In this document: piece by piece, positions 6,781 through 64,000 of the stretch
How positions within the stretch are numbered: the stretch's first letter is position 1
Layout: each line of letters opens with the position of its first letter
IMG/VR virus record: IMGVR_UViG_3300029288_000063
Span: 189,103 to 253,102 of that record
DNA from: a virus
Taxonomy: Duplodnaviria > Caudoviricetes
Length of the DNA: 64,000 bases
Strand: one strand, 5' to 3'
Position numbers and translations under genes: made by a program
The notes under the pieces: generated by a model
What the model saw: the letters and a program-made list of their open reading frames with translations, nothing else
Database searches by the model: none
Told to the model about the DNA's origin: nothing

Positions 6781-6814
6781 AGCAAAACCTCAATGAGGTT
6801 TTGCTATTTTTTTT
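6781..6814 (+). terminator. Rho-independent terminator
   Basis: AGCAAAACCTC-aat-GAGGTTTTGCT hairpin followed by a T-run. Confidence 0.75.
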
Positions 6815-6855
6815 ATTATCGTGAATGTATGGATAACTGTTTGGAGGAAAACATT

Positions 6856-7818
6856 ATGTGGGATTTCATAATTTATCTTATTCGTCGTTTTTTTGGTTTG
6901 TGTGCAGGGGATGTTCAGGTTGCAACCTCATCTGTAAGTGTTACAGAGCAGACAACTTATGGAGATAATGCCATGACAAACAATCGTTATGCCCTTTTAG
7001 TTGGCATCAATAAGTACACGTCGATGCAAGGTGCGGATTTGAACGGTTGTGTGAATGATGTGAATGATATGTACTATCGCTTGACGAAACATTATGGATT
7101 CCCCGAGGACAACATTCGTGTTCTGTGTGATGCTCGTGCGACACAACAGAACATTTTGGAGCGTTTGGAATGGCTGGTATCGTCCGCGAAGCCGGGCGAC
7201 CAGTTGGTTTTCCACTATAGTGGGCATGGTTCGTCGATTCGTTGCCGTGTTGACGACAAATTGGAAGACGAAGAGTGTCAGATTTTGTGTCCGACGGATA
7301 TGGATTGGGATAACCCGTTGACTGATAAGATGTTGGCTCAGTTTTTCAAGCGCATCCCTGCGGGTGCGTTTTTGACGTTTATCTGTGATTCGTGCCACAG
7401 TGGGACTATGGATCGTGGTGCGTTCCCTATTGGGAATCCACATGAGACAAAAATTCGCTTTATGCCGCCGCCCTTTGATATTTCGGTTCGTTCGCGTTCG
7501 GTGTTGCCGGTGAATCGCGTTGGTTGGAAAGATCTGAATGGTCCAAAAAACGGGAACATTGCGTTTTTTGATACTCGGCATTTATTGTTGTCGGGTTGCC
7601 GTGATAATCAGACTTCTGCGGACGCGTTTATTGGTGGGCAATATAATGGCGCGATGACGGCGGCGTTAAAAAAGGCGTTGGATAGCAATTTGGATGCGGA
7701 TTGGTTTACTGTTCACACTGAGATGCTTAAATATCTAACATCGGAAAAATTCACTCAGGTTCCGCAGTTGAGTGGTCCTGAAAAGGTGCTGAAACAGTCG
7801 GTTTTTCGTGGGCTGTGA
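6856..7818 (+). CDS. metacaspase (peptidase C14, caspase domain)
   Basis: YALLVGINKY, LNGCVND, FHYSGHG (catalytic His), ICDSCHSG (catalytic Cys), SGCRDNQTSAD, GAMT, QVPQL. Two RBS-preceded in-frame starts at 6856 and 6973. Confidence 0.92.
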   Translation: MWDFIIYLIRRFFGLCAGDVQVATSSVSVTEQTTYGDNAMTNNRYALLVGINKYTSMQGADLNGCVNDVNDMYYRLTKHYGFPEDNIRVLCDARATQQNILERLEWLVSSAKPGDQLVFHYSGHGSSIRCRVDDKLEDEECQILCPTDMDWDNPLTDKMLAQFFKRIPAGAFLTFICDSCHSGTMDRGAFPIGNPHETKIRFMPPPFDISVRSRSVLPVNRVGWKDLNGPKNGNIAFFDTRHLLLSGCRDNQTSADAFIGGQYNGAMTAALKKALDSNLDADWFTVHTEMLKYLTSEKFTQVPQLSGPEKVLKQSVFRGL

Positions 7819-10191: not shown

Positions 10192-16001
<5,810 letters not shown>

Positions 16002-16038: not shown

Positions 16039-18273
16039 ATGAGATTTCATTTGCTTGGTCTGGCGCATCTTCCAACCCATAAAAAGTTTTCCCAGTGTGC
16101 CTATACGAACAAGATAGTGCGGCTATCCAAGATGCTTCGTGCGAAGGGTCACACTGTTATTTTTTATGGTGTGGAAGGGTCCGAAGTAGAGTGTGATGAG
16201 TTTGTTCAGGTGCTGTCCGAGAAAGAACGTGTCGCGTGTTATGGCGAATATGACATGAAGAAGGAATTCTTCAAGCTGGATGGTGGAGACGCGGCATATA
16301 CGACTTTTAATCTGAACACTATTGAAGAGATCAATAAACGCAAGGTTGAGAGGGACGTACTTTTGTGTTCGATGGGGTGTTGGCATCAACCCGTCGCAAA
16401 AGGTACTGGCGTTTTGGCAGTCGAGTCAGGCATTGGTTATGAAGGTGTTTTTTCTCATTTCAAGGTTTTCGAGTCATATGCATGGATGCATTGGATTTAT
16501 GGGAAGCGCAACATCGTAAACGGTGTATGGTTTGATTCCGTCATTCCGAATTATTTTGATCTTGAGTCTTTCCCATTCCAAGAGAAAAAGGGTGATTATG
16601 CTCTTTTTGTTGGACGACTTGTGCATCGGAAAGGTATAGATGTGGCGGTTGAGGTAACGCGGCGCTTGGGAATGGAATTGATTGTCGCCGGTCAGGGTTC
16701 GTTGGTGAATCCACGGGAAAAACTTAACATAACGTCGTCCCATGTCAAACATGTTGGGTGTGTTGGTCCTGAAGAACGTGCGCAGTTGATGGGTGGTGCG
16801 CGGGTTTGCTTTGCCCCGACGTATTATATTGAGCCGTTTGGTGGCGTTGCTGTTGAGGCTCAATTGTGCGTTCTTCCAAAGACAAATCTAGGACTGTCAA
16901 ATAAATATTTTGAGGACGCAAAAATAGGGGATTCTATAGAATCGGAGGTTGGAGTTGTAAAAGTTGTAGATACCATGAAGCGTGATTATTGCGGAGATGT
17001 ATTTACAATTAAAGGATTGTCAATGTTGCCATTCACTGTAACTCGTGGACATCAAGTTAAAACAGCGAAGGTGGAAAGAACATATAATCCAGAATTTAGG
17101 AAACAGGGGAAAATGTGCTACGTTCGTTCTGTTAAAGATGTTGCATGGAAGAACGTGGAGGATGTAAGTGATGAAGATTATTTAGTTATTCCTAAGAGTT
17201 CTATTGAAATAAAAAAAGAAGGTTTTGTGTTAGAATCAAAGACATATACGCAAAAAGAAAAAAAATACAAAGATGTATTTTTACCTATCAATGAAGACAC
17301 GATGAGGTTATTTGGTTATTATGTTGCAGAGGGTGGAAGCGCAGAAAATGCTGCCAAAATTTATTTTGGTTCTCATGAGCCAGATTTGGTGTCTGATGTT
17401 ATTGACATCATTGAAAGATATACTCCATATAAAGTAACAGTTAAAGAACTTGGAAGTGTGTTTCATATTTCTTTTGGGGGGAATGTGATAGCGAGATTTT
17501 TAAGAGAAAACTTTGGAAAAATATCCACGGAAAAAATGATTCCAGATTGGATTTTATATGCGCCTTTAGACTTGTTGGAATCATTTTTAAGAGCTTATAT
17601 TGATGGGGATGGCTGTTATACAGGAAGGGCTTTGTCAATTTCAACATCTTCTAAACTATTGGCTATGCAACTTCAAAAAGCATTTTTGAGGTTTGGAGTC
17701 TTGGTTTCAATAACGATAGATAATAGAGAAGGTGAAGTTAATATATGTGGAAGAACTTGTCATCAAAATGTTCGGTATCTTATTCGTTCAAAAACAAACA
17801 ATCTTTTTAATAATATTGAAAAAGGAAACAGACTTTGTTCTCGCTTCTTAGAAGATGATAAGGCTTTTTATGTTCCTGTTTCTTCTATTATTAAAGATAG
17901 TTATTCTGGTGAGGTTTACAACGTAACAACCGAAGATAGTACATATTGCTTGGGAAATGTTTTGGTTCATAATTGCGGGACTCCGGTGTTGACGTCGGAT
18001 TTTGGGGCGTTCACGGAGACGATTCAGCACGGGAAGACTGGCTTCCGTTGCCGCACGATTGAGGAGTTTGTTTGGGCTGCAAAGAACGCAGATAAACTGA
18101 AGCCAGAAGACTGCCGTGAGTGGGCAGCGGCGAATTATAGCATGGAACGTGTTTCGGATATGTATGAAGAATACTTTCACAGGATTGCCTCTTTATGGGG
18201 TGAGGGTTGGTATGCCGAAAATGAAGCGAGGATAGATTTGAACTGGCTTCGTAAGCACTACATAAATGATTAG
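16039..18273 (+). CDS. GT4-family glycosyltransferase containing an intein
   Basis: LFVGRLVHRKG, EPFGGVAVEAQL|intein|CGTPVLTSDFGAFTETI..GKTGF is a GT-B/GT4 signature. Confidence 0.92.
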   Translation: MRFHLLGLAHLPTHKKFSQCAYTNKIVRLSKMLRAKGHTVIFYGVEGSEVECDEFVQVLSEKERVACYGEYDMKKEFFKLDGGDAAYTTFNLNTIEEINKRKVERDVLLCSMGCWHQPVAKGTGVLAVESGIGYEGVFSHFKVFESYAWMHWIYGKRNIVNGVWFDSVIPNYFDLESFPFQEKKGDYALFVGRLVHRKGIDVAVEVTRRLGMELIVAGQGSLVNPREKLNITSSHVKHVGCVGPEERAQLMGGARVCFAPTYYIEPFGGVAVEAQLCVLPKTNLGLSNKYFEDAKIGDSIESEVGVVKVVDTMKRDYCGDVFTIKGLSMLPFTVTRGHQVKTAKVERTYNPEFRKQGKMCYVRSVKDVAWKNVEDVSDEDYLVIPKSSIEIKKEGFVLESKTYTQKEKKYKDVFLPINEDTMRLFGYYVAEGGSAENAAKIYFGSHEPDLVSDVIDIIERYTPYKVTVKELGSVFHISFGGNVIARFLRENFGKISTEKMIPDWILYAPLDLLESFLRAYIDGDGCYTGRALSISTSSKLLAMQLQKAFLRFGVLVSITIDNREGEVNICGRTCHQNVRYLIRSKTNNLFNNIEKGNRLCSRFLEDDKAFYVPVSSIIKDSYSGEVYNVTTEDSTYCLGNVLVHNCGTPVLTSDFGAFTETIQHGKTGFRCRTIEEFVWAAKNADKLKPEDCREWAAANYSMERVSDMYEEYFHRIASLWGEGWYAENEARIDLNWLRKHYIND
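16867..17973 (+). mobile_element. intein with LAGLIDADG homing endonuclease (369 aa) in the glycosyltransferase
   Basis: Starts CVLPKT; block B VTRGH; LFGYYVAEG and FLRAYIDGDG; ends VYNVTT..LVHN followed by Cys; visibly AT-richer than flanks. Confidence 0.93.
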
Positions 18274-47018: not shown

Positions 47019-47055
47019 CATAAGGTCGTGTGACCTTATGTGTTTGGTTTTTTTT
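47019..47055 (+). terminator. Rho-independent terminator
   Basis: CATAAGGTC-gtgt-GACCTTATG followed by a T-rich tract. Confidence 0.65.
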
Positions 47056-47072
47056 GTGTTGGAGGTGTCGGG

Positions 47073-50000
47073 ATGGTTAAGGTTATTAAAGAAAAAAAGT
47101 CGAATCCGACGGATGTGCATTTGCAGGTAAAGTCGCTCTCAAATTATGAGATTTACGATTGGGATTCTGCCAAGATTGTTTCGGCGTTGCGTGAAGAGTG
47201 TCGGTTGTCGAAGGCGGATGCCGAGAAAATCGCCGAAACAGTGTATGGCGAATTGGTGTCGATGGGTAAAACCGAAATCGACATTCAGACCCTCAAGACG
47301 ATGGTGAATTATCACCTCCTCAAGAACGGTTTCAATGGTGCGAAGCTTTCGGGTCAGGTCTCTGTCGGCATGTCGTTGTATGACCTCGACAACCTGATTC
47401 ACGAAAAGTCCGCTGAGAACAGCAACATTTCGAGCAACAACCCGGAAGCCATTGCGCTGACGGTTGCCGAGAACACGTTCAAAAAGTACGCTCTGAAAAA
47501 GGTATTTGCTGGTGACGTAGAGCGTGCGCATCTTGAAGGTCTTATCCATTTGCATGACATGGGGTGTATAACTCGCGTTTATTGCAGTGCCCATTCGGTT
47601 CGCGCTATTGCTATGCACGGCTTGGGGCAGTTCCTGAAGTTTGATGTTCGCTCGTCGCCAGCCAAGCACGCTCAAGTGCTTGTTGGGCACCTCAACACGT
47701 TCCTGTGCAGCGCGGCGACGTATTATGCCGGTGCGCTTGGGCTTGACTTTGTGAACATCTATTTTGCCCCGTATGTTGAGCACATGAGCGACAAGGAAAT
47801 GAAGCAGGTTGCGCAATACCTGATTTTCTCGCTATCCCAGTCTGCGTTCAGTCGTGGCGGGCAGGTTCTCTTCACCGACTTCAACGTCCACATCTCTATT
47901 CCGGAATGGCTGAAAAAGGTTCAGGCTGTTGGTCCGGGCGGCGAGATGCTAACGAAGAAAGTCGACGGAAAGGTTGTTCCGAAGACGTATGCCGACTTCG
48001 AAGTTGCGTCGAAGAAGTTCCTTCGTGCGATGATGGAGGTTTGGCGTGAGGGGGATTCGAACGGTGCTCCCTTCAGTTTTCCGAAGTGTTTTGACAAAGA
48101 GACTCCTCTTTATGCAAAAGTTGATGGCGTTGTTAGGTTTTTGACTGCTGGAGACATTTTGTCTATTTGTGGAAGAAAGAATCATGAGGTTTATCTTCCA
48201 CGCCTGAGTGCCGCAAGAACGATGGAGTGGGTTCGTGTTCGTGGAGCTATGTCTCGTGGTGAAGAAATTGGTGTTCGTGTTAGGCTGAACAATGGGGCTT
48301 ACCAAGATTCGACAAAAGATCACAAGTATTATGTGTGGGATGAAAATTGTATTTCTGAACGTATGGCTCAGGATATTCGTGTTGGAGATGTTATGCTTTT
48401 TTCATCTCCTGTTGTTGATCGGGTTGGTGATTATCAGAAGATTGATGTGTTTGGTTTGCTTGATAATCCAGACTATCAGGTTTTCAACGTAGTTAAGTCT
48501 TCAAACAGTATGAGTGCGGTGCGAGATGGGTGGTGTCGCAGGTCTGAGTGTCTACGTGAGAATCTGACTGCCGATTCTTTTATCTGCGGATCAAAACAGA
48601 AGAAGAATTCGCTTCCGGTTGAAATTATTCTTGATGAGAAGTTTGCAAAACTTCTGGGGTATTTTGCGTCTGAGGGCAGTTTTTCAGGAAACCGTCTGAA
48701 TGTCGCTGCTATTAACGGAGGACGGTGTCGTGAAAAGATTGAGGCGTTGTTGTCGGAGCTTGGTTTTGATTATGGTGGAGACAATGCATCTGTATATATT
48801 TACAATAAGTTGCTTGTTGATTTGGTTTCTATGTTGTTTGTCGATTACGGCGTTGTTTCAAAAGGATATCGTCCTGCTTCGTCAAAGCATGTTCCGAGCT
48901 ATATATTCAATTCGCCAGTGTCTGTCCGTAAAGAGTTTCTTGTTGGGCTGTTCTCGGGGGACGGTTGTGTCAAGAAGTATGGTTTTGGGTTTTCGTCCTC
49001 GTCTCGTTCGTTGGTTTATGGTTGCAAGTGGCTTCTTGAGAGTGTCGGGGTTTATTCGTCCGTATACGAGGAGAGTCGAAACGGATATGATTGTGTGTAT
49101 TACTCGCTAAGCATTAAGGGTTCAAAATCTGTTTCTTTGGCGAACGAATTCCTTTCTGAAGAAATGGGTTCTTGTTCTGATTTTGGGCGTCGTGAGAACA
49201 GTGAAGCGTCATGGTATAATTCGGTTCCTGTTTCCTGTTTCGGAGATGGGACAACTGTTTGTGATTGGGAAAAGAACAGCAGGCAGTCTATGTCTTTGGA
49301 CGACGAGCGGATTATTGTTAATCCGTTGCTTTCTGGTATGATTCCGGTTGTGGTGAAGTCTGTCGGTGATGTGGAGGTTGATGCGATTGCAATTGAGGTT
49401 GATTGTCCAGAACATGACTTTGTAACAGGTGATGGGACGTGGACAAAAAATTGTGATTTTCATTTGTCTGAGAAGGACTTTACAGAAAACAAAGACATCG
49501 TGATGGAGGCTTGTCAGATCGCATCGGAGAATGGATCGCCGTATTTCATCTTCGATCACGACAGCATTACGGTTTCGGCGTGTTGTCGTTTGAGAACCAA
49601 AATAGAAGACGAAAAGGTTCTTGAAGAGCCGGAACGGTTGCGTTTCTGTGGGTTTCAGAACGTGACAATCAACCTTCCGCAATGCGCCTATCGCAGCAAC
49701 GGTGACTGGAAGCTATTTGAGAAGGAAATAGCGAATGCAATGGAGTTATCGAAGAAAGCCCATCTTCAAAAGAAGAAGTTTATTGAGTCTATTAGCCAAA
49801 ATCCCGGAGACCCGATGTACGACTTGTGTGGAGCGTCGTATTTCGATGGGAAGCCATATGTTCATCTTCCGTCGTGTACATACATTATTGGCATGATTGG
49901 TTTGAATGAAGCCGTGAAGTTCATGCTTGGTCAGGAGATTCATGAGTCTGACGAGGCTTTTGAGAAGGGCAAGGATATTGTTGCGTATATGCTTGCTGTT

Positions 50001-51500
50001 CTTGGTAAGATCAAAAAGGAAACTGGTTTGAAGTTCACATTGGAGGAGAGTCCTGCGGAGAGTACGGCTCGGCGTCTCGCCCGCTGTGATGTTGGCAAAT
50101 ATGAAGTTGCCAAGAAGTTCGTCAATGGATCGCTTGAGGATGACAATATTTACTATACGAACTGTGTTTCGGACGACACTGAAATTCTTACGGAAGATGG
50201 GTGGAAGTTTCGTAAGGATGTTAGGGTGGGAGACAATGTTCTTACGCTTAACATGAATGATAAGCTGTTATATTATCAACCTGTTTTGCGTAAATTCGAA
50301 CAGAGTCTTAAAAACGCCAAGATGGTCTCCATTAAAGGGAAGGCTACGGATCAACTTGTTACTCCGAACCACAATATTCTTTATACAAATCTTGCCAAGA
50401 AGGATTTGGTGAACCTGACGACGTACAAGAATCTTCCATCTACATTCAGGGTGTTTTGTGCTGCGCCTGTTGCTTGTGGAGATAATGGTAAATACTCAGA
50501 CGATCTTTTGGCTTTGCTCGGGTGGATTATCTCTGAGGGGCATTATGGAAAGAAGGGCAATTTTATGACGATTGCTCAAAGTGAAGTGGCTAATAAAAAG
50601 AAATATGACGAGATTGAGTCTCTTTTGACTCGGTTGGGTTTTGATTATCAAATCAATCATTGTAAGCAGCGGGGCAATATTGCGTTTCGTTTGAAGAAAA
50701 AAGATTCTGATTTTGTTCGGTCTTTGTTCCCGAAAAGGAGGATTCCTCGGGAGATTCTCAATACTTGTAGCGTGAGGCAACTGATGGTTCTTCTTGACGC
50801 TGCATTGAAGGGAGACGGAACACGTCGGTTTTCGGTTCGCACTCAAACGTGGAACGAACAGGCGACATATTATTCGGCAGATCGTGGTATTATTGAAGAT
50901 GTGCAAGAGGTGTTGTTGAAGATTGGTTTCCGCTCGAACATCATTGATTGTCCGTCTTCATCAACTTATCAGATTCGTGCGACAAAGTTCAACACGACTG
51001 AACTTAACAAAAAACAGCATGTTTCAGAAGAAGAATATACTGGGATGGTGTGGTGTGTGGAGGTTGAAAACCACACATTTGTCGCTCGACGGAAGGACAA
51101 GGTGTTTATCACGGGCAACTCGATTCATTTCCGTCCGGATGCCGATATCCCGTTTGTGGACCGTGTGTTCAAGCAGTCCGAGTTCCATAACATGATTGAG
51201 TCAGGAGCCATCGTTCACATGTTCTGTGGCGAGCACTTGCCTGACCCCGAATCGTTGTTTGCGTTACTGGAAAAGGTGTTTCGTACAACCAATTGTGCAC
51301 AGTTGGTTGTCTCTCCAGAATTTACGGTTTGCCACAAGTGCGGGAGGTTTCCCGGACTAAAGGAGGCTTGCCCGAAGTGTGGGGCAACGGATGTTGATCG
51401 TATTACCCGCGTGGTTGGGTACTACTCTAAAGTGGATAATTGGAATGTCAGCAAGCAGCGTGAGGGTCTTGACAGGCATAACGGCGTCTATTCTCTGTGA
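47073..51500 (+). CDS. nrdD: anaerobic (class III) ribonucleoside-triphosphate reductase with two inteins
   Basis: ATP-cone-like N-terminus, IHLHD, YC, SACCRL, TINLPQ, ESPAES, YYTN|S, CxxC...CxxC and RVVGYY glycyl-radical motif. Confidence 0.95.
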   Translation: MVKVIKEKKSNPTDVHLQVKSLSNYEIYDWDSAKIVSALREECRLSKADAEKIAETVYGELVSMGKTEIDIQTLKTMVNYHLLKNGFNGAKLSGQVSVGMSLYDLDNLIHEKSAENSNISSNNPEAIALTVAENTFKKYALKKVFAGDVERAHLEGLIHLHDMGCITRVYCSAHSVRAIAMHGLGQFLKFDVRSSPAKHAQVLVGHLNTFLCSAATYYAGALGLDFVNIYFAPYVEHMSDKEMKQVAQYLIFSLSQSAFSRGGQVLFTDFNVHISIPEWLKKVQAVGPGGEMLTKKVDGKVVPKTYADFEVASKKFLRAMMEVWREGDSNGAPFSFPKCFDKETPLYAKVDGVVRFLTAGDILSICGRKNHEVYLPRLSAARTMEWVRVRGAMSRGEEIGVRVRLNNGAYQDSTKDHKYYVWDENCISERMAQDIRVGDVMLFSSPVVDRVGDYQKIDVFGLLDNPDYQVFNVVKSSNSMSAVRDGWCRRSECLRENLTADSFICGSKQKKNSLPVEIILDEKFAKLLGYFASEGSFSGNRLNVAAINGGRCREKIEALLSELGFDYGGDNASVYIYNKLLVDLVSMLFVDYGVVSKGYRPASSKHVPSYIFNSPVSVRKEFLVGLFSGDGCVKKYGFGFSSSSRSLVYGCKWLLESVGVYSSVYEESRNGYDCVYYSLSIKGSKSVSLANEFLSEEMGSCSDFGRRENSEASWYNSVPVSCFGDGTTVCDWEKNSRQSMSLDDERIIVNPLLSGMIPVVVKSVGDVEVDAIAIEVDCPEHDFVTGDGTWTKNCDFHLSEKDFTENKDIVMEACQIASENGSPYFIFDHDSITVSACCRLRTKIEDEKVLEEPERLRFCGFQNVTINLPQCAYRSNGDWKLFEKEIANAMELSKKAHLQKKKFIESISQNPGDPMYDLCGASYFDGKPYVHLPSCTYIIGMIGLNEAVKFMLGQEIHESDEAFEKGKDIVAYMLAVLGKIKKETGLKFTLEESPAESTARRLARCDVGKYEVAKKFVNGSLEDDNIYYTNCVSDDTEILTEDGWKFRKDVRVGDNVLTLNMNDKLLYYQPVLRKFEQSLKNAKMVSIKGKATDQLVTPNHNILYTNLAKKDLVNLTTYKNLPSTFRVFCAAPVACGDNGKYSDDLLALLGWIISEGHYGKKGNFMTIAQSEVANKKKYDEIESLLTRLGFDYQINHCKQRGNIAFRLKKKDSDFVRSLFPKRRIPREILNTCSVRQLMVLLDAALKGDGTRRFSVRTQTWNEQATYYSADRGIIEDVQEVLLKIGFRSNIIDCPSSSTYQIRATKFNTTELNKKQHVSEEEYTGMVWCVEVENHTFVARRKDKVFITGNSIHFRPDADIPFVDRVFKQSEFHNMIESGAIVHMFCGEHLPDPESLFALLEKVFRTTNCAQLVVSPEFTVCHKCGRFPGLKEACPKCGATDVDRITRVVGYYSKVDNWNVSKQREGLDRHNGVYSL
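48087..49451 (+). mobile_element. intein 1 of NrdD (455 aa, LAGLIDADG)
   Basis: FPK|CFDKET; STKDH; LLGYFASEG and FLVGLFSGDG; ends WTKN|C. Confidence 0.9.
50163..51119 (+). mobile_element. intein 2 of NrdD (319 aa, LAGLIDADG)
   Basis: YYTN|CVSDDTEILT; VTPNH; LLGWIISEG and LLDAALKGDG; ends FITGN|S. Confidence 0.92.
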
Positions 51501-51508
51501 GGTGTATT

Positions 51509-51733
51509 ATGGCAAAGTTTGTAATGTGGGTTGGGGATAACTGCCCCAAATGTGACGAAGTCAAAGCCATTTTGGCGGGTAACGGTCATGAGGTTGAGGT
51601 TCGCCCGGCGGTTGGGTTGACAAACGGTGATGAGTTCAACCCGGCCGCCCTGAAGAAGTTGGCGGCGCAGAACTACTCTACCCCGCTGGTGTGTATGGGT
51701 GATGTTTTCTTCCCAAAGAATCATAGCTTCTAA
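51509..51733 (+). CDS. glutaredoxin/NrdH-like redoxin
   Basis: NCPKCDEVK and TPLV; directly after nrdD. Confidence 0.75.
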   Translation: MAKFVMWVGDNCPKCDEVKAILAGNGHEVEVRPAVGLTNGDEFNPAALKKLAAQNYSTPLVCMGDVFFPKNHSF

Positions 51734-51741
51734 GGGATAGT

Positions 51742-53001
51742 ATGCTGCCAGAACTTGTTGTTGAGAAGAAGAAGCTTTCCGAGCTGATGCCTGCGGGGTA
51801 CAACCCACGCAGTATCAGTCCGGAGGCGTTTGAAGGCCTGAAGAAGTCGATAAGTCGTTTCGGGCTTGTCGAACCTATCGTTTGGAACAAACGCACCGGA
51901 AATGTGGTTGGTGGGCACCAGCGTTTGAAGGTGTTACAAGCAACCGGAGTTGAGGAAACCAGTGTCATTGTCGTCGAGCTTGGGGACAAGGAAGAGGTTG
52001 CCCTGAATATTACTTTGAACAACCCATCTGTCAAGGGGCATTGGACGGATGGTGTTCAGGGGTTGTTGGAGTCTATTCCCGAGGATATGAAGGATGATAT
52101 TTCGGCGTCTGACCTGAAGGAGTGGTTGTCAGAAAACACGGATATCCAAATCGTCGAAAAAGACGAGTTTGGTGTTCCGTTTGACGTAGACCATGTATCC
52201 ATCATTGATGGGAAGCTTGGCAACTGGCAGGAACGGAAAAAACTCTGGAAGAAGCTTGGCATACAGAGTGAGATTGGTCGTGGTAAGGCGTTAACATTCG
52301 CCCACCGGTCGTCGGATGGCGCTGGTGATTTTGTAACGAAGAAAATTCTTCGCGGTGATGCTGCGGGGACGTCTATTTTTGACCCCGTGTTGTGTGAGAT
52401 TGTCTATCGCCGTTATTGCCCGGCGGGTGGTCGTATCCTTGACCCGTTTGCCGGTGGTTCTGTTCGCGGTGTTGTTGCAGCGAAGCTTGGGTTTAAGTAT
52501 GTCGGCGTAGACCTTCGTGGTGAGCAGGTTGAGGAAAACATCCGTCAGGCCGAAAGGATTGTGCCGGAGAACAAGCCGGAGTGGGTTACCGGTGACAGCA
52601 AGAACATCCGCACAATGGTTGACGGTGACTTCGATTTTGTTTTCTCGTGTCCGCCGTATTTTGACCTTGAAGTTTACAGCGAGAAAGAGGAAGATTTGTC
52701 TACGATGAAGTGGGAAGCCTTTTGCGAGGTGTATTCCGACATCGTGGCCGGGTCTGTGTCACGTTTGCGTCCGGGCAGCTTTTGTTGTTTTGTGGTTGGC
52801 GACGTTCGTGATTCGGATGGGTTCTATAGAGGTTTTGTTCCCCTGACAATAGAGTCATTTGAACGTGCCGGAGCGCGTTTGTATAATGAGATGGTTTTGA
52901 TAACCCCAGTTGGGCACTTGGCGTTGCGTTGTGGTGGTCAGTTTTCGGCGTCACGTAAGCTCGGGAAGACCCATCAAAACGTTTTGGTGTTTCGAACTTA
53001 G
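51742..53001 (+). CDS. ParB-N domain + amino-DNA methyltransferase fusion (paralog A)
   Basis: YNPR...GLVEPIVWN...VGGHQR (ParB-N); TSIFDPVLCE, DPFAGGSVRG (SAM motif I), FSCPPY (motif IV), KLGKTHQNVLVF. Confidence 0.9.
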   Translation: MLPELVVEKKKLSELMPAGYNPRSISPEAFEGLKKSISRFGLVEPIVWNKRTGNVVGGHQRLKVLQATGVEETSVIVVELGDKEEVALNITLNNPSVKGHWTDGVQGLLESIPEDMKDDISASDLKEWLSENTDIQIVEKDEFGVPFDVDHVSIIDGKLGNWQERKKLWKKLGIQSEIGRGKALTFAHRSSDGAGDFVTKKILRGDAAGTSIFDPVLCEIVYRRYCPAGGRILDPFAGGSVRGVVAAKLGFKYVGVDLRGEQVEENIRQAERIVPENKPEWVTGDSKNIRTMVDGDFDFVFSCPPYFDLEVYSEKEEDLSTMKWEAFCEVYSDIVAGSVSRLRPGSFCCFVVGDVRDSDGFYRGFVPLTIESFERAGARLYNEMVLITPVGHLALRCGGQFSASRKLGKTHQNVLVFRT

Positions 53002-53012
53002 GAGGAAGCAGC

Positions 53013-55178
53013 TTGAAGGATATGAAGATTGTTCGGAAAAAGATGTCCGAGCTTATCCCGTCTGAATATAATCCGCGTGCGATTAGCCCGACGGCGATGG
53101 AGGGGTTGAAAGAATCCCTCAAACGTTTTGGTTTGGTTGAGCCTATTGTCTGGAACAAACGCACCGGGAGAATTGTCGGTGGACATCAGCGTCACAAGGT
53201 GATGTCTGAGCAGGGCGTCGAGGAGACCGATGTTGTTGAGGTCGACCTTGGTGAGACGGAAGAGGTCGCACTGAACATCGCGCTGAACAATCCGGCGATT
53301 CAGGGTGACTGGGATGAGTCGGCCGCAGAACTTTTGCAGGAAGTTGGCGAGGGTTTGCCGGACTTGTTCCGTGCCGTGCGTCTCGATGACCTTCTGGACG
53401 CCTTGGGTGGTTCGGATGACGGTTCTGGTGATGGCTCCGGTGATGGTACGGGTGAAGGGACAAAGGAAGAGGACGGAAAAAACGACGACCAAGACCACAA
53501 TAGTTCGTTGTTTGACCAGTTCGTTGTGCCGCCGTTCACCGTGCTTGACCAGCGAAAGTCATATTGGAGAAATCATCGTTCCGCATGGCTTAAGCACGGC
53601 GTGCGTGGTGAGTTTGACCCTGTTCTTGCTTCGCTGATTTACAAGTGGTTTTGTCCGGTTGACGGGGTTGTGTTGGACTTGGACGGCGACGAAACATCGA
53701 AGGGACTTGTGGCCGGTTTGGCGGGGTGCCGGTATGTCGGGGTCGCAACGTCGGAGAAGCAGGCGAAGGAAAACAAGAAGAAGTGGGAGGGTGTTCGTGA
53801 TAAGGAATACCTGAAAGACTTCAATCCCGAGCTTACCCCTATTGAGCGTGTCGGTGCGTTTTTCCTGAAGCGTGATGACCTGTTCTGTGTTGGCGGCGTG
53901 CGTGGTGGTAAGGTTCGCACTTGCTGGTCGTTGTCACAGGGTGCCAAGGGTTTGATTACGGCGGGAAGTCGTATGTCGCCGCAGGTGAACATCGTTTCGC
54001 ATATCGCCGGTCGTCTTGGGCTGCCTTGCCGCGTGCATACGCCCGAGGGCGAACTGTCGCCTGAAGTGTTGTCGGCAAAGAATACCGGTGCCGAGGTTGT
54101 CCAGCACAATGCCGGTTATAACTCCGTGATTATTTCCCGTGCCCAAGATGATGCGAAGGAGCGCGGTTGGACTGAGATTCCGTTTGGGATGGAGTGTCAG
54201 GCGGCAGTAGATGCGACGAGGAAGCAGGTTGCCAACATACCGAAGGACGTAAAACGAATCCTCATGGTTGTCGGTTCTGGTATGTCGCTGTCTGGCGTCC
54301 TGCATGGGTTGAACGATTTCGGGTTGAAGATTCCCGTTGTTGGTATCTCTGTCGGTGCCGACCCCGAGGAGCGGTTGAATACCTATGCGCCGAAGAATTG
54401 GCGCGAGATGGTTACCATTATCAAGTGCCCGATTGACTATCACGACGACGCCGATGGGAACATTATTGGTGATGTTATTGTTGACCCGATTTATGAGGGG
54501 AAATGTCTGCCGTATCTGGAAGCGGGCGACCTTTTCTGGATTGTCGGTGTTCGTGAGACAGCGGTGAAGCCGTCCGGGCAGGTTCCGGTCGTTATCGGGT
54601 CTTCCGCTGCGAAACAGGATGGTGACGATGAGGAACAGGAAGAGCCGGTAAAGCCTAAGTCGAAGTCCAAGAAGGGCAAGAAATCGGATAATGCGTTGGA
54701 ACCGGAGTGGCATTCCAAGGTTCCGGAGGACGGGGCTGACCTGTCACTGATTTCGGTTCCGGATAGTGTTCCGGATGAGGAGTGGGACACTTTTTACACA
54801 CAGCTTTGCAAGAAGATTGAGTTGGCATCGAGCAAACTGAACGACGGTCGTTTTTCGTGCGTTCTTTTCGATGATATAGCGGACAAGGATGGTTTTTCTC
54901 GTGGTTTGTTCCACAAGATTGTCCGCGAGTTTGAGAAGCACGACATGAAGCTCTACAACGAGGCGTTGTTGGTTGTGGATGAGCCGTGGTTTGCGTCGCG
55001 GTGTGCCGATTTCCAGAAGACGAGGAAGAATCACCGTATGCACCGGACGTTCCTGTCTTTCTTCAAGGGTGAGCTGAAAGCCGTGAAGTCTGATTTTGAG
55101 ATGGTTGACCTGTCGGGTCTTGAGAACACGTTGGTGTCCGACCCCGGAGAGACCTCGGAATGTGTTGAGCTTGAATAA
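53013..55178 (+). CDS. ParB-N + degenerate methyltransferase with inserted PLP-dependent (fold II, ACC deaminase/D-cysteine desulfhydrase-like) domain (paralog B)
   Basis: ParB-N; FDPVLA..VLDLDG (degenerate motif I). Insert at about 53829-54550: LTPIE..FLKRDDL..GGKVR, VGSGMSLSG, DPIYEGK. MTase C-terminus resumes with LYNEALL..HRMHRTFLSF. Confidence 0.85.
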   Translation: MKDMKIVRKKMSELIPSEYNPRAISPTAMEGLKESLKRFGLVEPIVWNKRTGRIVGGHQRHKVMSEQGVEETDVVEVDLGETEEVALNIALNNPAIQGDWDESAAELLQEVGEGLPDLFRAVRLDDLLDALGGSDDGSGDGSGDGTGEGTKEEDGKNDDQDHNSSLFDQFVVPPFTVLDQRKSYWRNHRSAWLKHGVRGEFDPVLASLIYKWFCPVDGVVLDLDGDETSKGLVAGLAGCRYVGVATSEKQAKENKKKWEGVRDKEYLKDFNPELTPIERVGAFFLKRDDLFCVGGVRGGKVRTCWSLSQGAKGLITAGSRMSPQVNIVSHIAGRLGLPCRVHTPEGELSPEVLSAKNTGAEVVQHNAGYNSVIISRAQDDAKERGWTEIPFGMECQAAVDATRKQVANIPKDVKRILMVVGSGMSLSGVLHGLNDFGLKIPVVGISVGADPEERLNTYAPKNWREMVTIIKCPIDYHDDADGNIIGDVIVDPIYEGKCLPYLEAGDLFWIVGVRETAVKPSGQVPVVIGSSAAKQDGDDEEQEEPVKPKSKSKKGKKSDNALEPEWHSKVPEDGADLSLISVPDSVPDEEWDTFYTQLCKKIELASSKLNDGRFSCVLFDDIADKDGFSRGLFHKIVREFEKHDMKLYNEALLVVDEPWFASRCADFQKTRKNHRMHRTFLSFFKGELKAVKSDFEMVDLSGLENTLVSDPGETSECVELE

Positions 55179-55200
55179 TTGAACCCGAAAGGATATCCCT

Positions 55201-56553
55201 ATGTCGTTTGTGAAAGTTGTTCGGGTTGCGATTGAAAAGCTCAATCCTGCCCCCTATAATCCACGGAAAATCTCTGACCGTGCCCTGTCGGGCTTGCAGT
55301 CGTCTATTTCCCGTTTCGGGATGGTCGAGCCTATTGTTTGGAACAAACTGACGGGCAATGTGGTTGGTGGACACCAGCGTTTGAAGGTGTTGCAGGCGGC
55401 GGGGAAGAAGGAGGTTGATGTTGTCGAGGTAGAACTTGATGACAAAATGGAGAAAGCCCTCAATCTTGCCCTGAACAACCCGAAGTTGGAGGGTGACTGG
55501 ACTGAGGATGTCATTGACCTAATGGAACACGTACGGATGGCTGAGGACGGGTTGGCGGATATGCTGCGGTTTGACGAACTCCAACAGATTGTCGAGAAGT
55601 CGTTGTTGCGTGGGCAGTCGGAAAGAAGTGCCCTTGAGGAGAACAGCAAGCACCTTGGCGTAACCCTGTTTGATTGTCGTCAGGGTGAGTGGCAGCGTCG
55701 TAAGGATGCGTGGATTTCCTGTGGGTTGGATAGTGGTTTGGGGCGCGGTGATAATCTTCTCGGAATGTCCAATCTGGCCAAAATCACGGGTATGAAAGGT
55801 CAGAAGGTTGGAACGTCAATCTTCGACCCCGTGTTGTGTGAGCTTTTGTATCGTTGGTATTGTCCTGAGGGCGGGATGATTCTTGACCCGTTCAGTGGCG
55901 GCTCTGTTCGTGGTATTGTCGCCTGTATTTTGGGGCGGCATTATGTTGGAGTAGACATCCGTCCGGAACAGATTGAGGCAAACATAGCACAAGCGAATCT
56001 CTTGGAATGCGACCCGATGCCTAAATGGATTGTCGGTGACAGCTCGAATATCGACGAGTTGGCGAAGGATGTCGAGGCGGACTTCTTTTTCTCATGCCCG
56101 CCGTACTTCGACTTGGAGGTTTACAGTGACCGTGAAGAAGACCTGTCCACGATGAAGTGGGAGGCGTTTTGCGATATCTATCGCAAGATTATTCACAAGG
56201 GTCTAGAGTTGCTCAAGCCGAATCGTTTCGCCTGTTATGTTATCGGCGATATCCGTGATGATGATGGTTTCTATCGCAAGTTTGTGAATGAGACCATTGA
56301 GTCGTTCGAGTCCGGCGGGGCGCGGTTCTATAATGAGGCTGTGTTGGTTACTGCCGGTGGAACGTTGCCGATGCGTATCCGTCGCCAGTTTGGTTCATAT
56401 CGCAAACTCGGGAAGTCCCATCAGAATGTTTTGGTGTTCTATAAGGGAGACCCGAAGAAGATTCCCGAGGTGTTTGAGAATACCCCGGCGGATGCTCCGG
56501 TTATGATGCCGGGTCTTGCGAGTCAGTATTTCAAGCCTCATGTTGGGTCTTGA
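55201..56553 (+). CDS. ParB-N domain + amino-DNA methyltransferase fusion (paralog C)
   Basis: YNPR, VGGHQR, TSIFDPVLCE, DPFSGGSVRG, FSCPPY, KLGKSHQNVLVFYKG. Confidence 0.9.
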   Translation: MSFVKVVRVAIEKLNPAPYNPRKISDRALSGLQSSISRFGMVEPIVWNKLTGNVVGGHQRLKVLQAAGKKEVDVVEVELDDKMEKALNLALNNPKLEGDWTEDVIDLMEHVRMAEDGLADMLRFDELQQIVEKSLLRGQSERSALEENSKHLGVTLFDCRQGEWQRRKDAWISCGLDSGLGRGDNLLGMSNLAKITGMKGQKVGTSIFDPVLCELLYRWYCPEGGMILDPFSGGSVRGIVACILGRHYVGVDIRPEQIEANIAQANLLECDPMPKWIVGDSSNIDELAKDVEADFFFSCPPYFDLEVYSDREEDLSTMKWEAFCDIYRKIIHKGLELLKPNRFACYVIGDIRDDDGFYRKFVNETIESFESGGARFYNEAVLVTAGGTLPMRIRRQFGSYRKLGKSHQNVLVFYKGDPKKIPEVFENTPADAPVMMPGLASQYFKPHVGS

Positions 56554-56800
56554 GTGCCTCGGCGTATGGCTTGGCGTAGCGTTCCTTGAGGGCGGCGATT
56601 CCCGCCTCGCGTGCCGTTGCGGGGTCGTATCCCATCTCGATATAGATTTCGGGGCGGATGGCGATTTCGTGGGCGAGTTTGATGGCGCTTTTGTGCTCCC
56701 CGAGTCGGGGGAACTTTGCCGCGAAGCGGATGGCTTCGTCCCATCGTTCGCTTGTCATGAGTTGTAGTAGTTTGGCGAGCTTAGTATCGGTTGCTGGCAT
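56531..56800 (-). CDS. small helical protein convergent on the ParB-MTase cluster
   Basis: AAGGAGG RBS before ATG 56800; TKLAKL..WDEAIRFAAKFPRLGEHK..YIEMGYDP..GIAALKERY. Confidence 0.75.
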   Translation of the reverse strand: MPATDTKLAKLLQLMTSERWDEAIRFAAKFPRLGEHKSAIKLAHEIAIRPEIYIEMGYDPATAREAGIAALKERYAKPYAEALKTQHEA

Positions 56801-60389: not shown

Positions 60390-61094
60390 ATGGAAAACTG
60401 GAATTTGGATGTTAGGGCGTTTCAACCGAACTCGTTGAACGAATGGGCAGGCAACATATCGGCTGTCATCTTTTTTGGCGGGTGCAATTGGTCGTGTCCA
60501 TATTGTCACAACTATGAGCTGTCGGGAGAGTCAGCCATTGACCCAAATGAGGTGTTGTCGAAAATCGCATCTATGAAATATTTGGATGGAGTCGTTTTGT
60601 CCGGTGGAGAAGCTACTCTTCAGCCGCATCTTGCCCGCTTTGCAAAAGCAATAAAGAGTCTCGGGTTGAAGGTGAAGCTGTTTTCGAATGGATCACGTCC
60701 GAGTGTGATTTTAGAGATGGTGTCGACCGGCGTGCTGGATTGTGTAAGTTTGGATTACAAGACGCTGCCGGAATTGCTTCCGTCGCTGTTGGGCGCGAAG
60801 CGAGAGGACATAGAGAATGTTGCGTGTTCGTTTCTGAATCTGAAAAACAGCGGGGTCGACAGGGAATACCGAACGACCCTGTGCCCCGCTGTCGTCACGC
60901 CGTCTATGCTTTTGGATATGGCAACTCGCTTGGACAATGACGGATTGTGGATTTTGCAGCAATACGGGAAAGAGCGTGTCCTCGATATCTCGAAGAGTGG
61001 GGAGCGTGTGTTTTCAGATAAAGAACTTGAAAGCATTCTTTCCGGCGTCCGTGGATTGCATAAGAATGTTGTTTTGAGAAAGGGCACATCGTGA
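60390..61094 (+). CDS. nrdG: anaerobic RNR activating radical SAM enzyme
   Basis: GCNWSCPYCHN (CxxxCxxC), GVVLSGGEATL, KLFSNGS, EYRTT. Confidence 0.88.
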   Translation: MENWNLDVRAFQPNSLNEWAGNISAVIFFGGCNWSCPYCHNYELSGESAIDPNEVLSKIASMKYLDGVVLSGGEATLQPHLARFAKAIKSLGLKVKLFSNGSRPSVILEMVSTGVLDCVSLDYKTLPELLPSLLGAKREDIENVACSFLNLKNSGVDREYRTTLCPAVVTPSMLLDMATRLDNDGLWILQQYGKERVLDISKSGERVFSDKELESILSGVRGLHKNVVLRKGTS

Positions 61095-61940: not shown

Positions 61941-62209
61941 ATAGGAGAAAATCGTGTTTCGCCGCGTTATTAGTTTGTTCTGCAAACACCCCACGAAAAT
62001 CGAAGCCACATCCCAACAAAAGCCTTTTAACTCGGAATCGTTTGATTTGAGCGTTCCGCTATCTTGCAGGCTTAAACGCCTTCGTCCAATATCGAAAAAA
62101 CCAAAGAAAACCTCCGCTTAATCGTATAATTACGTAAGGTGTTATCTCAGAAAGCCTGTGCTCATGCGATGAGTATACAGGGTTTTCTGACATTATGATG
62201 GAGGTTCTT

Positions 62210-64000
62210 ATGTCGCTTATTGTGAAGATACAAAAGAAGGGGTTGATTCATCCCCCGAGTTGGCTCCCCGAAAACACCCACTACCTTGTGATGATGGGCA
62301 GCGAAGCCTATGGCTGTTCGTCCGGAAAGTCCGATATGGACTTGTATGGGTGGTGTGTGCCCCCGAAGGACATGGTGTTTCCGCACCTTGCCGGTGAAAT
62401 TACCGGGTTCGGTCGCCAAGCTAAGCGGTTCGAGGTTTGGCAGGAGCATCATATTGACGACAAGGATGTTGGCAAGCAGTACGACTTTGCCATCTACAGC
62501 GTCGTGAAGTTCTTTCACCTGTGCATGGAAAACAACCCCAACATGGTGGATGCCCTGTTTGTGCCCACGCGTTGCGTGCTGCACTGCACGTCGCTCGCGA
62601 ACATCATGCGTGACAACCGCAAGCTGTTTCTTCACAAGGGCTGTTGGCACAAGTTCCGTGGATATGCGTATAGCCAGCTCCACAAGATGGCTATCAAGAA
62701 CCCTGAGCCGGGTTCCAAGCGTCACGCTCTTGTGCAGGAGTTCGGATTCGACTGTTATTTAGAGTCTGAGACGGAGTTTCTAACCGCCTCGGGGTGGAAA
62801 CGATACCATAATATTGGAGAGGTGGACCTTCTGGCCGAGGTTGACCCCAAGTCTGGCGAGTTGTGCTTTTCAAGGCCAACCGGCAGAGTTTGTCGGGCGC
62901 ACTCTGGCCCCATGTATGTCCTTGAGCCATATATGAGCCGGTGTGTGGTTACGCCAAACCACAATATGCTAGTTTCCGTGGCTCACCGGGGGAAGAACGG
63001 GTACACCTACGAAGACAAAGATGCTTCGTGGTCGCTGACTCCGATGAAGAGTATCATTGATGGGAGTCGCTCTTGGTATCATGTTCGTCGTTCTTCTGCC
63101 CCAAGAGCGAAGGCTTACGCTGTAGAAGACGACTATCTCAAGTTGTCTGGACTCTTTGTTTCTGAAGGTTCTTTTGGGTTTTGTAATGGAAAGGTCAAAG
63201 AGGCTCGCCTGACTCAAACTCCGAACGGTAAATTGTCTTTTTACGGCGAAGCCGATGCCCTTGTTCCTCATCGTTATGACTACGAGAAGGAGTCTGTTTG
63301 GGTGATTGGTAGAAAGATGGCCGAACGCCTGTATTTAGATTTTGGTCATGGTTCTCGAAACAAAAGGCTCCCTGCGTGGTCGCTCCAATTGTCTTTCGAC
63401 CAAGCTCGGACTTTTTGGGATTATTTGTGCTTGGGCGACGGAACCTATACTGAAAATGGGGATGTCTATTACACCATCAATGAGGGCTTGGCTGGGGATA
63501 TTCAGGCTATGATGGTGTCTGCTGGACATCTGTGTTCTGTTCGAGGACCTTTTTCAAGCATCTGTTCTTTTACTGGAAAACCCGTCGAGTCTTTTCAGGT
63601 CTATCTATCTGAAGAAGGGGCGTTTCGGTGTGTTGACTTCAAGAGCAAGTCTCGATTTCTTCGCCACGGTCAAGTTCCTGACACGGGAAAGGGTTATTCT
63701 CTCAAGGAGATAATGGTTGACCAGCAGTTGGTGGTATGCTTTGAAATGCCTTTTGGGACATTAGTCACAAGGAGCAAAGGCAGGGTTGCCATCCAAGGAA
63801 ACTGCAAGTTCGCGTATCACGTTGTTCGCCTGATGTTGGAAGTCGAGCAGATTCTCGTCGAGCAAGACCTCAATCTCGAACGCAACAGTGAAATCTTGAA
63901 GGCGATTCGGCGAGGCGAATGGTCGGAACAGCGTATTCGTGATTTCCTGTCCGAAAAGGAAAGCTCTTTGGAGGAGTTTTACCACAAGAGCACGCTGCCG
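62210..64000 (+). CDS. RlaP/PF10127-like nucleotidyltransferase (pol-beta superfamily) with intein, 3'-truncated; absent from ORF track
   Basis: Manual translation from ATG 62210 (GGAGG RBS): MMGSEAYG..SDMD, NNPNMVDALF, FRGYAYSQL, FGFD|intein|CKFAYHVVRL..LKAIRRGEW; frame open to the window end. Confidence 0.88.
   Translation, partial: MSLIVKIQKKGLIHPPSWLPENTHYLVMMGSEAYGCSSGKSDMDLYGWCVPPKDMVFPHLAGEITGFGRQAKRFEVWQEHHIDDKDVGKQYDFAIYSVVKFFHLCMENNPNMVDALFVPTRCVLHCTSLANIMRDNRKLFLHKGCWHKFRGYAYSQLHKMAIKNPEPGSKRHALVQEFGFDCYLESETEFLTASGWKRYHNIGEVDLLAEVDPKSGELCFSRPTGRVCRAHSGPMYVLEPYMSRCVVTPNHNMLVSVAHRGKNGYTYEDKDASWSLTPMKSIIDGSRSWYHVRRSSAPRAKAYAVEDDYLKLSGLFVSEGSFGFCNGKVKEARLTQTPNGKLSFYGEADALVPHRYDYEKESVWVIGRKMAERLYLDFGHGSRNKRLPAWSLQLSFDQARTFWDYLCLGDGTYTENGDVYYTINEGLAGDIQAMMVSAGHLCSVRGPFSSICSFTGKPVESFQVYLSEEGAFRCVDFKSKSRFLRHGQVPDTGKGYSLKEIMVDQQLVVCFEMPFGTLVTRSKGRVAIQGNCKFAYHVVRLMLEVEQILVEQDLNLERNSEILKAIRRGEWSEQRIRDFLSEKESSLEEFYHKSTLP
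62753..63802 (+). mobile_element. intein (350 aa, LAGLIDADG) in the nucleotidyltransferase
   Basis: CYLESETEFLTASGW; VTPNH; LSGLFVSEG and FWDYLCLGDG; ends VVCFEM..AIQGN|C. Confidence 0.9.

Follow-up and report, generated by a model that had tools for sequence, protein, structure and literature searches.

We analyzed the final 64 kb of a linear 253-kb virus record in IMG/VR (IMGVR_UViG_3300029288_000063), hereafter the window, in which three consecutive plus-strand open reading frames (ORFs), A, B, and C, encode proteins that each join a ParB_N domain to the fold of an S-adenosylmethionine (SAM)-dependent amino-methyltransferase (MTase). In the middle protein, B, the MTase fold has lost its catalytic motifs and houses an enzyme domain that relies on pyridoxal 5'-phosphate (PLP) (Table 1). 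All long genes of the window lie on the plus strand, spacers of 11 nt (A/B) and 22 nt (B/C) separate the three ORFs, and A, B, and C alike match the same family of phage DNA methyltransferases, phrog_498 (A at E 2e-95 and C at E 2e-107). The best explanation is that they form one operon of paralogous ParB_N-fused enzymes. The original prediction for this DNA, drawn from its letters and translations, had placed three tandem ParB-N paralogs here; the ORFs were found in that place, with the predicted end at position 56800 lying ~250 nt beyond the stop codon of C, and the more than 828 homologues that share the architecture of B put the arrangement far beyond chance. Among 50,697 phage records, the 4.8-kb A-B-C cluster had zero megablast matches. 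One landfill-metagenome DNA run contains the entire stretch and is probably its source; no RNA run is listed.

Table 1. Genes A, B, and C and their domains and motifs (nucleotide positions in the window; pLDDT, predicted local distance difference test; L002, a 344-kb phage contig with an orthologue of B)
Feature	Position	Strand	Basis or remarks
Gene A	51742-53001	+	419 aa; ParB_N (residues 9-90) and intact, unpermuted amino-methyltransferase core
A motif I, DPFAGG	52441-52458	+	Alignment
A motif II, VGVDL	52501-52515	+	Alignment
A motif IV, S-CPPY (SCPPY)	52645-52659	+	Alignment
Gene B	53013-55178	+	721 aa, TTG start; ParB_N, dead MTase scaffold, and inserted PLP domain
B MTase fold, N-half (residues 171-262)	53523-53798	+	Alignment; conserved positions changed
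B VLDLDGDETS in place of motif I	53670-53699	+	Alignment
B VGVATS in place of motif II acid	53736-53753	+	Alignment
B PLP domain, fold-type II (residues 263-520; 258 residues)	53799-54572	+	PALP, phrog_3650, 1j0a, Foldseek
B KRDD	53868-53879	+	PLP domain
B GGKVR, with PLP lysine K300	53904-53918	+	PLP domain
B GSGMS phosphate loop	54273-54287	+	PLP domain
B DPIYEGK	54483-54503	+	PLP domain
B charged linker (residues 521-570)	54573-54722	+	Mostly predicted disordered; pLDDT <50 at 529-565; 29% identity to L002 orthologue
B MTase fold, C-half (residues 571-700)	54723-55112	+	pLDDT 80-96; predicted dimer-surface strands and helices retained
B DLSLISVPD in place of motif IV	54738-54764	+	Alignment
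B LYNEA	54951-54965	+	Predicted dimer surface, with R671 and H677
B acidic C-terminal tail (...ETSECVELE)	55113-55175	+	76% identical in L002 orthologue; absent from A, C, and ordinary fusions
Gene C	55201-56553	+	450 aa; ParB_N (residues 6-87) and intact amino-methyltransferase core
C motif I, DPFSGG	55885-55902	+	Alignment
C motif II, VGVDI	55945-55959	+	Alignment
C motif IV, S-CPPY (SCPPY)	56092-56106	+	Alignment

Both A and C matched ParB_N and N6_N4_Mtase in Pfam. In an alignment of A, B, C, and homologues of B with an intact MTase (hereafter intact fusions), A and C carry the SAM-binding motif I and the motif II acid of amino-methyltransferases, which B lacks, as well as motif III (GDS). 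In motif IV, the residue that precedes PP usually forms a hydrogen bond with the target amine and is usually D, N, S, or H. This motif, located where strand 4 ends, has been formulated as [DNSH]PP[YFW] (PMC4738411); A and C have the PPY and the fold, with a Cys directly before PP, and because this Cys lies outside the [DNSH] set, even A and C do not appear to be textbook amino-methyltransferases. The Cys belongs to the family, whose motif IV reads [ST]-C-P-P-Y and in which it is at least 90% conserved in PLP-less and PLP-bearing members alike; a literature search for the whole words 'CPPY', 'methyltransferase', and 'phage' returned no paper. A structure model of C found its best Foldseek matches among RNA N2-methylguanosine methyltransferases (aTrm11, Trm14, and TrmN; target TM-score ~0.4), and for its core we found neither a DNA MTase nor a dimer among solved structures that was a close match. 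We considered M.EcoGII as a characterized relative and rejected it, as it lacks ParB and belongs to the permuted beta class, and our literature search found no experimentally characterized ParB-MTase.

Against the PF02195 (ParB/Srx N-terminal domain) cut-off of 26.3 bits, A scored 27.6 bits, C 31.9 bits, and B a sub-threshold 18.8 bits; the ParB domain of B matches phrog_620 at E 2e-29, and its predicted secondary structure agrees with that of its counterpart in C. In an alignment with Bacillus subtilis Spo0J (6sdk), GGHQRLK lines up with GERRFRA, and A, B, and C all have GGHQR, without the GERRxR arginine patch (box II; CTP binding and hydrolysis) of the CTP-clamp ParBs.

Judged from its sequence, B is a pseudo-methyltransferase in which motifs I to IV have been destroyed while the PLP domain has been fully conserved. 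Pfam recovered PALP at 39.7 bits (cut-off 35) and no MTase match (PF01555). Compared with 64 intact fusions, B has lost all of motif I, and it keeps 112/123 highly conserved positions in the PLP domain (91%) versus 50/96 in the MTase core (52%). The GR...GTSIF loop that precedes motif I in its relatives is deleted, and the GDS of motif III is missing. With motifs I to IV destroyed, the best explanation is that B has lost its capacity to bind SAM and to accommodate a flipped base. The fold-type II hallmarks are all present in the PLP domain, namely a Schiff-base lysine, a glycine-rich phosphate loop, the tyrosine of DPxYxGK, and a PALP score over the cut-off, and K300, GSGMS, and DPIYEGK are invariant across 66 homologues. 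The alignment shows the PLP block to have been inserted between motifs II and III of the MTase, located in AlphaFold2 models in a helix-to-strand loop of the MTase fold; we rejected the idea that it occupies the target recognition domain site of alpha-class MTases, which lies between motifs III and IV. The AlphaFold2 model of B has a mean pLDDT of 82, with the PLP domain above 90 and the MTase remnant at 80-96, and is disordered at residues 136-169, 529-565, and 702-721. Five residues of the MTase C-half (G627, Y648, R671, H677, and F683) are invariant across the family, and the acidic tail of B could be a docking peptide. B is not junk and not decaying, because its frame is intact, its L002 orthologue is 47% identical, and its MTase remnant folds with high predicted confidence. 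These results bear out much of the original prediction, which had called the motifs of A and C intact and those of B eroded (VLDLDG and LISVPD), had placed a complete fold-II PLP domain between the eroded motifs at about 53829-54550, and had taken B for an inactive MTase scaffold that carries a PLP enzyme.

The PLP domain resembles both metabolic enzymes and a phage DNA-modifying enzyme. Its closest solved structure by sequence is 1j0a, a homologue of 1-aminocyclopropane-1-carboxylate (ACC) deaminase from Pyrococcus horikoshii, and its closest matches by fold are D-cysteine desulfhydrases and ACC deaminases (Foldseek, E 1e-13, target TM-score 0.63). The PLP lysine, glycine loop, and tyrosine of DPxY(E/T)GK are common to it and these enzymes (1j0a, 4d8u, 7ysk, and 1tzk); it differs from them in being tied to DNA-binding and DNA-modifying modules, whereas they are free-standing metabolite enzymes at 17-22% identity. 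Its scores for the cellular equivalogs of NCBIfam are far below the cut-offs (19.9 vs 289 bits for TIGR01275, ACC_deam_rel; ~16 vs 429-610 for PRK03910). On the phage side, the fold-type II PLP enzymes gp226 of phage ViI and gp52 of phage M6, which decarboxylate amino-acid:thymine conjugates in the phage DNA (Lee et al. 2021), have been modelled on 1j0a as well, and purified, PLP-containing gp226 decarboxylates O-serinyl-thymidine in DNA (PMC8989533). ViI gp226 is a core member of phrog_3650 (E 2.5e-241), which the PLP part of B matches at E 6e-34, together with phrog_7093 at E 2e-8. Pairwise BLASTP of the two gave 24% identity (E 1e-7) with the Lys, Y-E-G-K, and LFWIVG aligned, and hhalign of the B PLP profile against gp226 gave a probability of 97.3 (E 2.5e-11, 168 columns). 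The two differ in setting, gp226 being a stand-alone protein and the PLP domain of B lying inside an MTase fold. A tblastn search of phage records with the PLP part of B matched 8 records, ViI not among them, so the link to gp226 holds only at the profile level. B and gp226 have in common a Glu after the catalytic Tyr, where DcyD of Escherichia coli, a D-cysteine desulfhydrase, has YTGK. We take this Glu, near the PLP ring, to be a mark of true ACC deaminases, and treat it as a lead rather than a test.

Fusions of this kind form a large family. A search of 5.8 billion proteins yielded the more than 828 homologues of B with ParB, PALP, and N6_N4_Mtase mentioned above, mostly 700-800 aa long. 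Nearly all of the best 120 keep DPFAGGS, [ST]CPPYxDLE, the PLP lysine, and GSGMS, and the MTase motifs are eroded only in B and one relative (P0005). The view in the original prediction that a PLP enzyme was grafted into an already degenerate MTase is thus not borne out: insertion is typical of a large family with intact MTases, and the decay of the MTase in B is probably, as far as these comparisons go, secondary to it. When viral contigs were scanned for further proteins of the B type, the motifs were intact at each of the 10 loci obtained, and the dead-scaffold form is rare. The PLP-domain profile matched 467 clusters (50% identity) at E <=1e-30 among 1.84 billion representatives. Among the 150 best of these representatives, 70 have the PLP domain inserted, 18 have it after the MTase and 4 before it, and 18 have it stand-alone, the rest being fragments or other fusions, which include ParB+PLP, DUF3102+PLP, and PLP+DNA polymerase A (the DNA polymerase A partner occurs in P0262 and DUF3102 in P0308 and P0357).

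The family is present in cultured phages, with fusions in Pseudanabaena phage Pam4 (gp70) and Erythrobacter phages R6L (ORF1) and ZS04. In Mycobacterium phage Vincenzo, the MTase (gp1) and the PLP enzyme (gp2) are separate neighbouring genes ahead of the terminase; gp1 is 40% identical to the MTase core of C and gp2 31% identical to the PLP domain of B. Of four loci sampled around stand-alone PLP genes, three (L028, L032, and L024) have a CPPY MTase at a distance of 0.8-4.6 kb. The PLP family stays with one CPPY MTase family through five different architectures, and in small phages (e.g., L003) the intact fusion is the sole modification gene. We found no paper on a PLP domain in or beside a ParB-MTase. 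Some members carry extra domains: P0083 has an Asp/Arg-hydroxylase-type domain within the insert and P0034 a weak match to LPG_synthase_C, which is aminoacyl-transferase-like, both hints of further tailoring of an amino-acid-like group. PF11307 (DUF3109 / Rv0495c) is weakly matched by a separate gene of L028 (6027-6602) that lies between a stand-alone PLP gene and the accompanying CPPY MTase, and also within the long fusions P0031 and P0089; PF11307 could be a third recurrent component.

The combination of a dead MTase that carries a PLP domain with a live PLP-less paralogue beside it recurs. The L002 contig has the order nrdD, small ORF, ParB-MTase, ParB-MTase, ParB/dead-MTase/PLP, and ParB-MTase, with a radical SAM gene and RlaP further on. 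B and its L002 orthologue are 62% identical in ParB, 50% in the MTase N-half, 53% in the PLP domain, and 44% in the MTase C-half. On an unrelated 14-kb contig (L027), the protein P0281 has ParB followed by a shrunken MTase frame that lacks motifs I-IV and by a C-terminal PLP domain, and an intact ParB-MTase (DPFAGG, FSCPPYADLE) begins 13 nt after it. The pairing has thus arisen at least two times, independently. We also built a tree of the ParB+MTase core with the PLP columns removed (FastTree, midpoint-rooted, from which we draw no order of events), limited to fusions of 690-800 aa and PLP-less matches of 400-520 aa. A single clade (support 0.955) unites the seven jumbo-phage paralogues with two PLP-less relatives, and B is faster-evolving than A or C.

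Structure prediction suggests that B and C can dimerize through their MTase cores. We modelled B(171-700) with C(140-450), each with its own alignment, in three runs and with three controls. The ipSAE of the pair was 0.83 versus 0.00 for the best control, on a scale whose mark was reached by 58/80 solved complexes and 2/110 mismatched pairs and is only roughly valid with supplied alignments; contact agreement across the three runs was at least 89%, and the pLDDT of the partner at least 72. As solved structures offered neither a close DNA MTase nor a close dimer for this core, the score is unlikely to be a memory of a solved complex. The predicted interface is pseudo-symmetric and uses equivalent parts of the two MTase C-halves (B 614-700 and C 343-431). 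It takes in four of the five family-invariant residues of the B C-half, G627, Y648, R671, and H677, and the fifth, F683, is flanked by interface residues 682 and 684. Of the complex of A, B, and C put forward in the original prediction, one part gains ground, in that a B-C dimer is predicted and the gene pairing recurs in L002 and L027, whereas a "ParB-loaded" sliding complex is still conjecture, with GGHQR in place of GERR.

We propose that A and C are competent SAM-dependent transferases that would act on an exocyclic amine of the phage DNA, and that B would pair with one of them through the conserved MTase-core dimer surface, as METTL14 does with METTL3. Such pairing would place the PLP active site on DNA that is being modified by the live subunit, and together the two would write something more than a methyl group. 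Tentatively, we favour the explanation that B, with an active PLP enzyme and a dead MTase, assists A or C in writing a non-methyl mark; it is plausible and may still prove wrong. We infer that the substrate of the PLP domain is linked to DNA; this role is favoured because the PLP family is coupled to one MTase family, because its fusion partners are DNA-related (ParB, DNA polymerase A, and DUF3102), because the scaffold and ParB survive in B, and because a dimer is predicted. The 253-kb record has no second PLP gene of the B family, and, given that no other source of a DNA-linked amino acid was found in it, A or C must make the substrate if it is DNA-linked. As to the chemistry, the live subunit could attach the 3-amino-3-carboxypropyl (acp) group of SAM to adenine N6 or cytosine N4, and the PLP domain could then decarboxylate the adduct to an aminopropyl group. 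We consider it unlikely, and offer it as speculation, that the live subunit (A or C, or in most phages the intact fusion) transfers acp and that the PLP enzyme decarboxylates it on DNA to give an undescribed aminopropyl base; as one part of this scheme, an aminopropyl base in jumbo phages written by a heterodimer of an active enzyme and a pseudo-enzyme with two cofactors deserves similarly low expectations.

Several observations weigh against this proposal. Hhalign of the B PLP profile against DcyD gave a probability of 96.7 (E 3.7e-10, 221 columns), and gp226 and DcyD are, by these profile scores, about equally near the PLP domain of B; homology therefore allows a DNA-adduct decarboxylase and does not require one. 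The ViI/M6 link drawn in the original prediction holds at the level of family and does not by itself imply adduct decarboxylation. No residue of the PLP domain lies in the predicted B-C interface, and the helix-to-strand loop that bears the insert is on the side of the Rossmann fold facing away from the SAM pocket. Since B and C are paralogous, homodimers (B-B or C-C) could form through this surface too, and the conservation of B at the interface (15/23 positions, 65%) is not significantly higher than that in the rest of the core (35/73, 48%; p = 0.16). At least 7974 PLP-less ParB-MTases share the same MTase core with identical motifs at ~46% identity, which means that the core may merely methylate, leaving DNA without a primary amine for the PLP enzyme. 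Elsewhere in the core tree, fusions and PLP-less forms are intermixed, the insert having been gained or lost repeatedly. Finally, the completeness of the 253-kb record is estimated at ~75% (CheckV).

Much of this would follow if A and C were plain anti-restriction methyltransferases of differing specificity that make N6-methyladenine or N4-methylcytosine, with the PLP domain acting on a free metabolite, in the manner of a D-Cys-desulfhydrase or an ACC-deaminase-like lyase, or on a SAM by-product and the frame of B serving as an incidental carrier. We regard this explanation as somewhat unlikely, and as the strongest competitor to the proposed non-methyl mark. The thousands of PLP-less proteins with the same catalytic core, the many gains and losses of the insert, and a PLP profile that is as near DcyD as gp226 and whose best Foldseek matches are DcyD and ACC deaminase all fit it, as do tandem MTase paralogues, which are common in phages (phage R6L has been described with five methylase genes; PMC5463345). 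It leaves unexplained, however, why a metabolite enzyme would keep to a single MTase family in its inserted, tandem-fused, adjacent-gene, and dead-scaffold forms, or would be fused to ParB or DNA polymerase A, for neither of which there is an obvious need. Selection in B also kept the scaffold and ParB while the catalytic motifs decayed, and the low cellular equivalog scores of the PLP domain likewise speak against this explanation.

The PLP domain might instead finish a thymidine-type pathway as in ViI and M6, with A and C as unrelated methylases, the scaffold of B tethering the decarboxylase to DNA, and the remaining enzymes encoded in the missing quarter of the genome. The shared PHROG of B and gp226, the incompleteness of the record, and reported fusions of PLP decarboxylases with other hypermodification genes (PMC8989533) are in keeping with this idea. 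The gp226 pathway includes a kinase for 5-hydroxymethyl-2'-deoxyuridine (5-hmdU) and an amino-acid:DNA transferase (AADT); in the ~75% complete 253-kb record we found no homologue of the ViI AADT, gp247, and no thymidylate-synthase-like hydroxymethylase (PF00303), the 5-hmdU DNA kinase not having been searched for. The intact fusion is, moreover, the sole modification gene in small phages such as L003, and the steady partner of the PLP family is a CPPY MTase, not a kinase or an AADT, so we think this pathway improbable here.

We hold it very unlikely that the protein is directed at SAM itself, which would be bound by the MTase fold and cleaved or rearranged at its amino-acid end by the PLP domain (as a SAM lyase, or by forming or opening ACC) to deplete SAM against restriction. 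The ACC-deaminase fold of the PLP domain and its Y-E-G-K motif, which resembles that of true ACC deaminases, are compatible with such an activity, and intact members of the family have a SAM pocket and PLP in one protein; motifs I and II of B are destroyed, yet its PLP site is fully kept, which implies that the PLP enzyme needs no SAM in cis, and the dead SAM site of B counts against PLP acting on SAM bound there, while the near-invariance of the base-binding CPPY and of ParB in the family points to a DNA substrate. Nor is it at all probable that B is a relic, either a decaying PLP-MTase fusion without function or one whose PLP domain is merely a structural or DNA-recognition module: half of its conserved MTase positions are gone and it evolves faster than its paralogues, but its 721-codon frame is open, synteny is kept between two phages, nine-tenths of the conserved PLP positions are kept, with the Lys, phosphate loop, and Tyr-Glu among them, and the same dead-MTase state arose independently in L027.

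A non-methyl mark written by a live subunit with the help of B would have partial parallels in known systems. ParB-fused N6/N4 methyltransferases of phage ParB-terminase (Tls) loci were predicted by Iyer et al. 2013, as cited in PMC4738411, and A, C, and the frame of B belong with them, having an N-terminal ParB and an unpermuted amino-MTase core, with small-phage genes of the family adjoining terminase. The genes described here differ in lying beside nrdD in a jumbo phage and in a motif IV that starts with Cys. The parts of the Tls literature available to us (Iyer et al. 2013 itself only through PMC4738411 and PMC13229309) make no mention of a PLP insert or a dead-scaffold member. A ParB-family module is likewise coupled to a post-replicative phage DNA-modifying enzyme in the 5mYOX thymine dioxygenases, which have a ParB activator whose canonical CTP-site residues are unnecessary for activity (PMC13229309). 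There, ParB is a separate activator of an iron- and 2-oxoglutarate-dependent dioxygenase, whereas here ParB_N is fused to every subunit and has GGHQR for GERR. Pairs of an active methyltransferase and a degenerate paralogue occur in METTL3-METTL14 and in ciliate MTA1-MTA9. As in METTL3-METTL14, one paralogue retains its catalytic motifs and the other, without them, preserves the fold, with a dimer through the MTase cores that is predicted in our case; the kinship is only at the superfamily level, and the dead subunit here adds a second enzyme and a second cofactor. New in this study are the pseudo-methyltransferase B, its recurrence, and the predicted B-C dimer, the parent fusion family usually having an intact MTase.

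The A-B-C ORFs come after an intein-bearing nrdD (47040-51500) and a small ORF (51510-51733). NrdD is 1486 aa long, with a LAGLIDADG domain at residues 630-697 and a sub-threshold intein-splicing match at residues 1062-1349, which suggests one or two inteins; the L002 orthologue is 736 aa long, with no LAGLIDADG or intein matches on record. The small ORF has no Pfam match and carries a CPKC motif suggestive of a glutaredoxin or NrdH-like redoxin, and a 69-aa ORF occupies the same spot in L002. Downstream are a radical SAM protein with a 4Fe-4S domain (60390-61094), probably the NrdD activase, and an RlaP-type nucleotidyltransferase (62195-64000), the extra segment of which (residues 185-327) matches phage families that also match NrdD at its candidate intein regions. 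Elsewhere in the window are a caspase-domain peptidase (6793-7818; Peptidase_C14, E 6e-29), a 1709-aa protein with seven collagen-repeat stretches and a laminin-G/ConA-like domain that is probably a fibre (10192-15321), and a group-1 glycosyltransferase split by a LAGLIDADG intein in a low-GC stretch (16039-18273; 0.39). Outside the window, at 101524-103512 of the record, is a fourth MTase-like gene, whose 662-aa product has a LAGLIDADG_2 endonuclease domain and, after it, a weak match of the N6_N4/Eco57I MTase type.

To our knowledge, the phage DNA hypermodifications that involve PLP all build on 5-hydroxymethyl-pyrimidines. An amino-methyltransferase with a built-in PLP enzyme would suggest another route, one that acts on the amines of purines or cytosine, and the fusion family in which this linkage occurs is common and present in cultured phages. 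The jumbo-phage locus separates the functions naturally, with two live PLP-less transferases and one PLP enzyme on a dead transferase. If the proposed role of B is correct, this would be the first case of a pseudo-enzyme partnering a DNA-modifying enzyme of a phage; if A and C only methylate, a metabolite-type PLP enzyme tethered to DNA methylases would itself be noteworthy.

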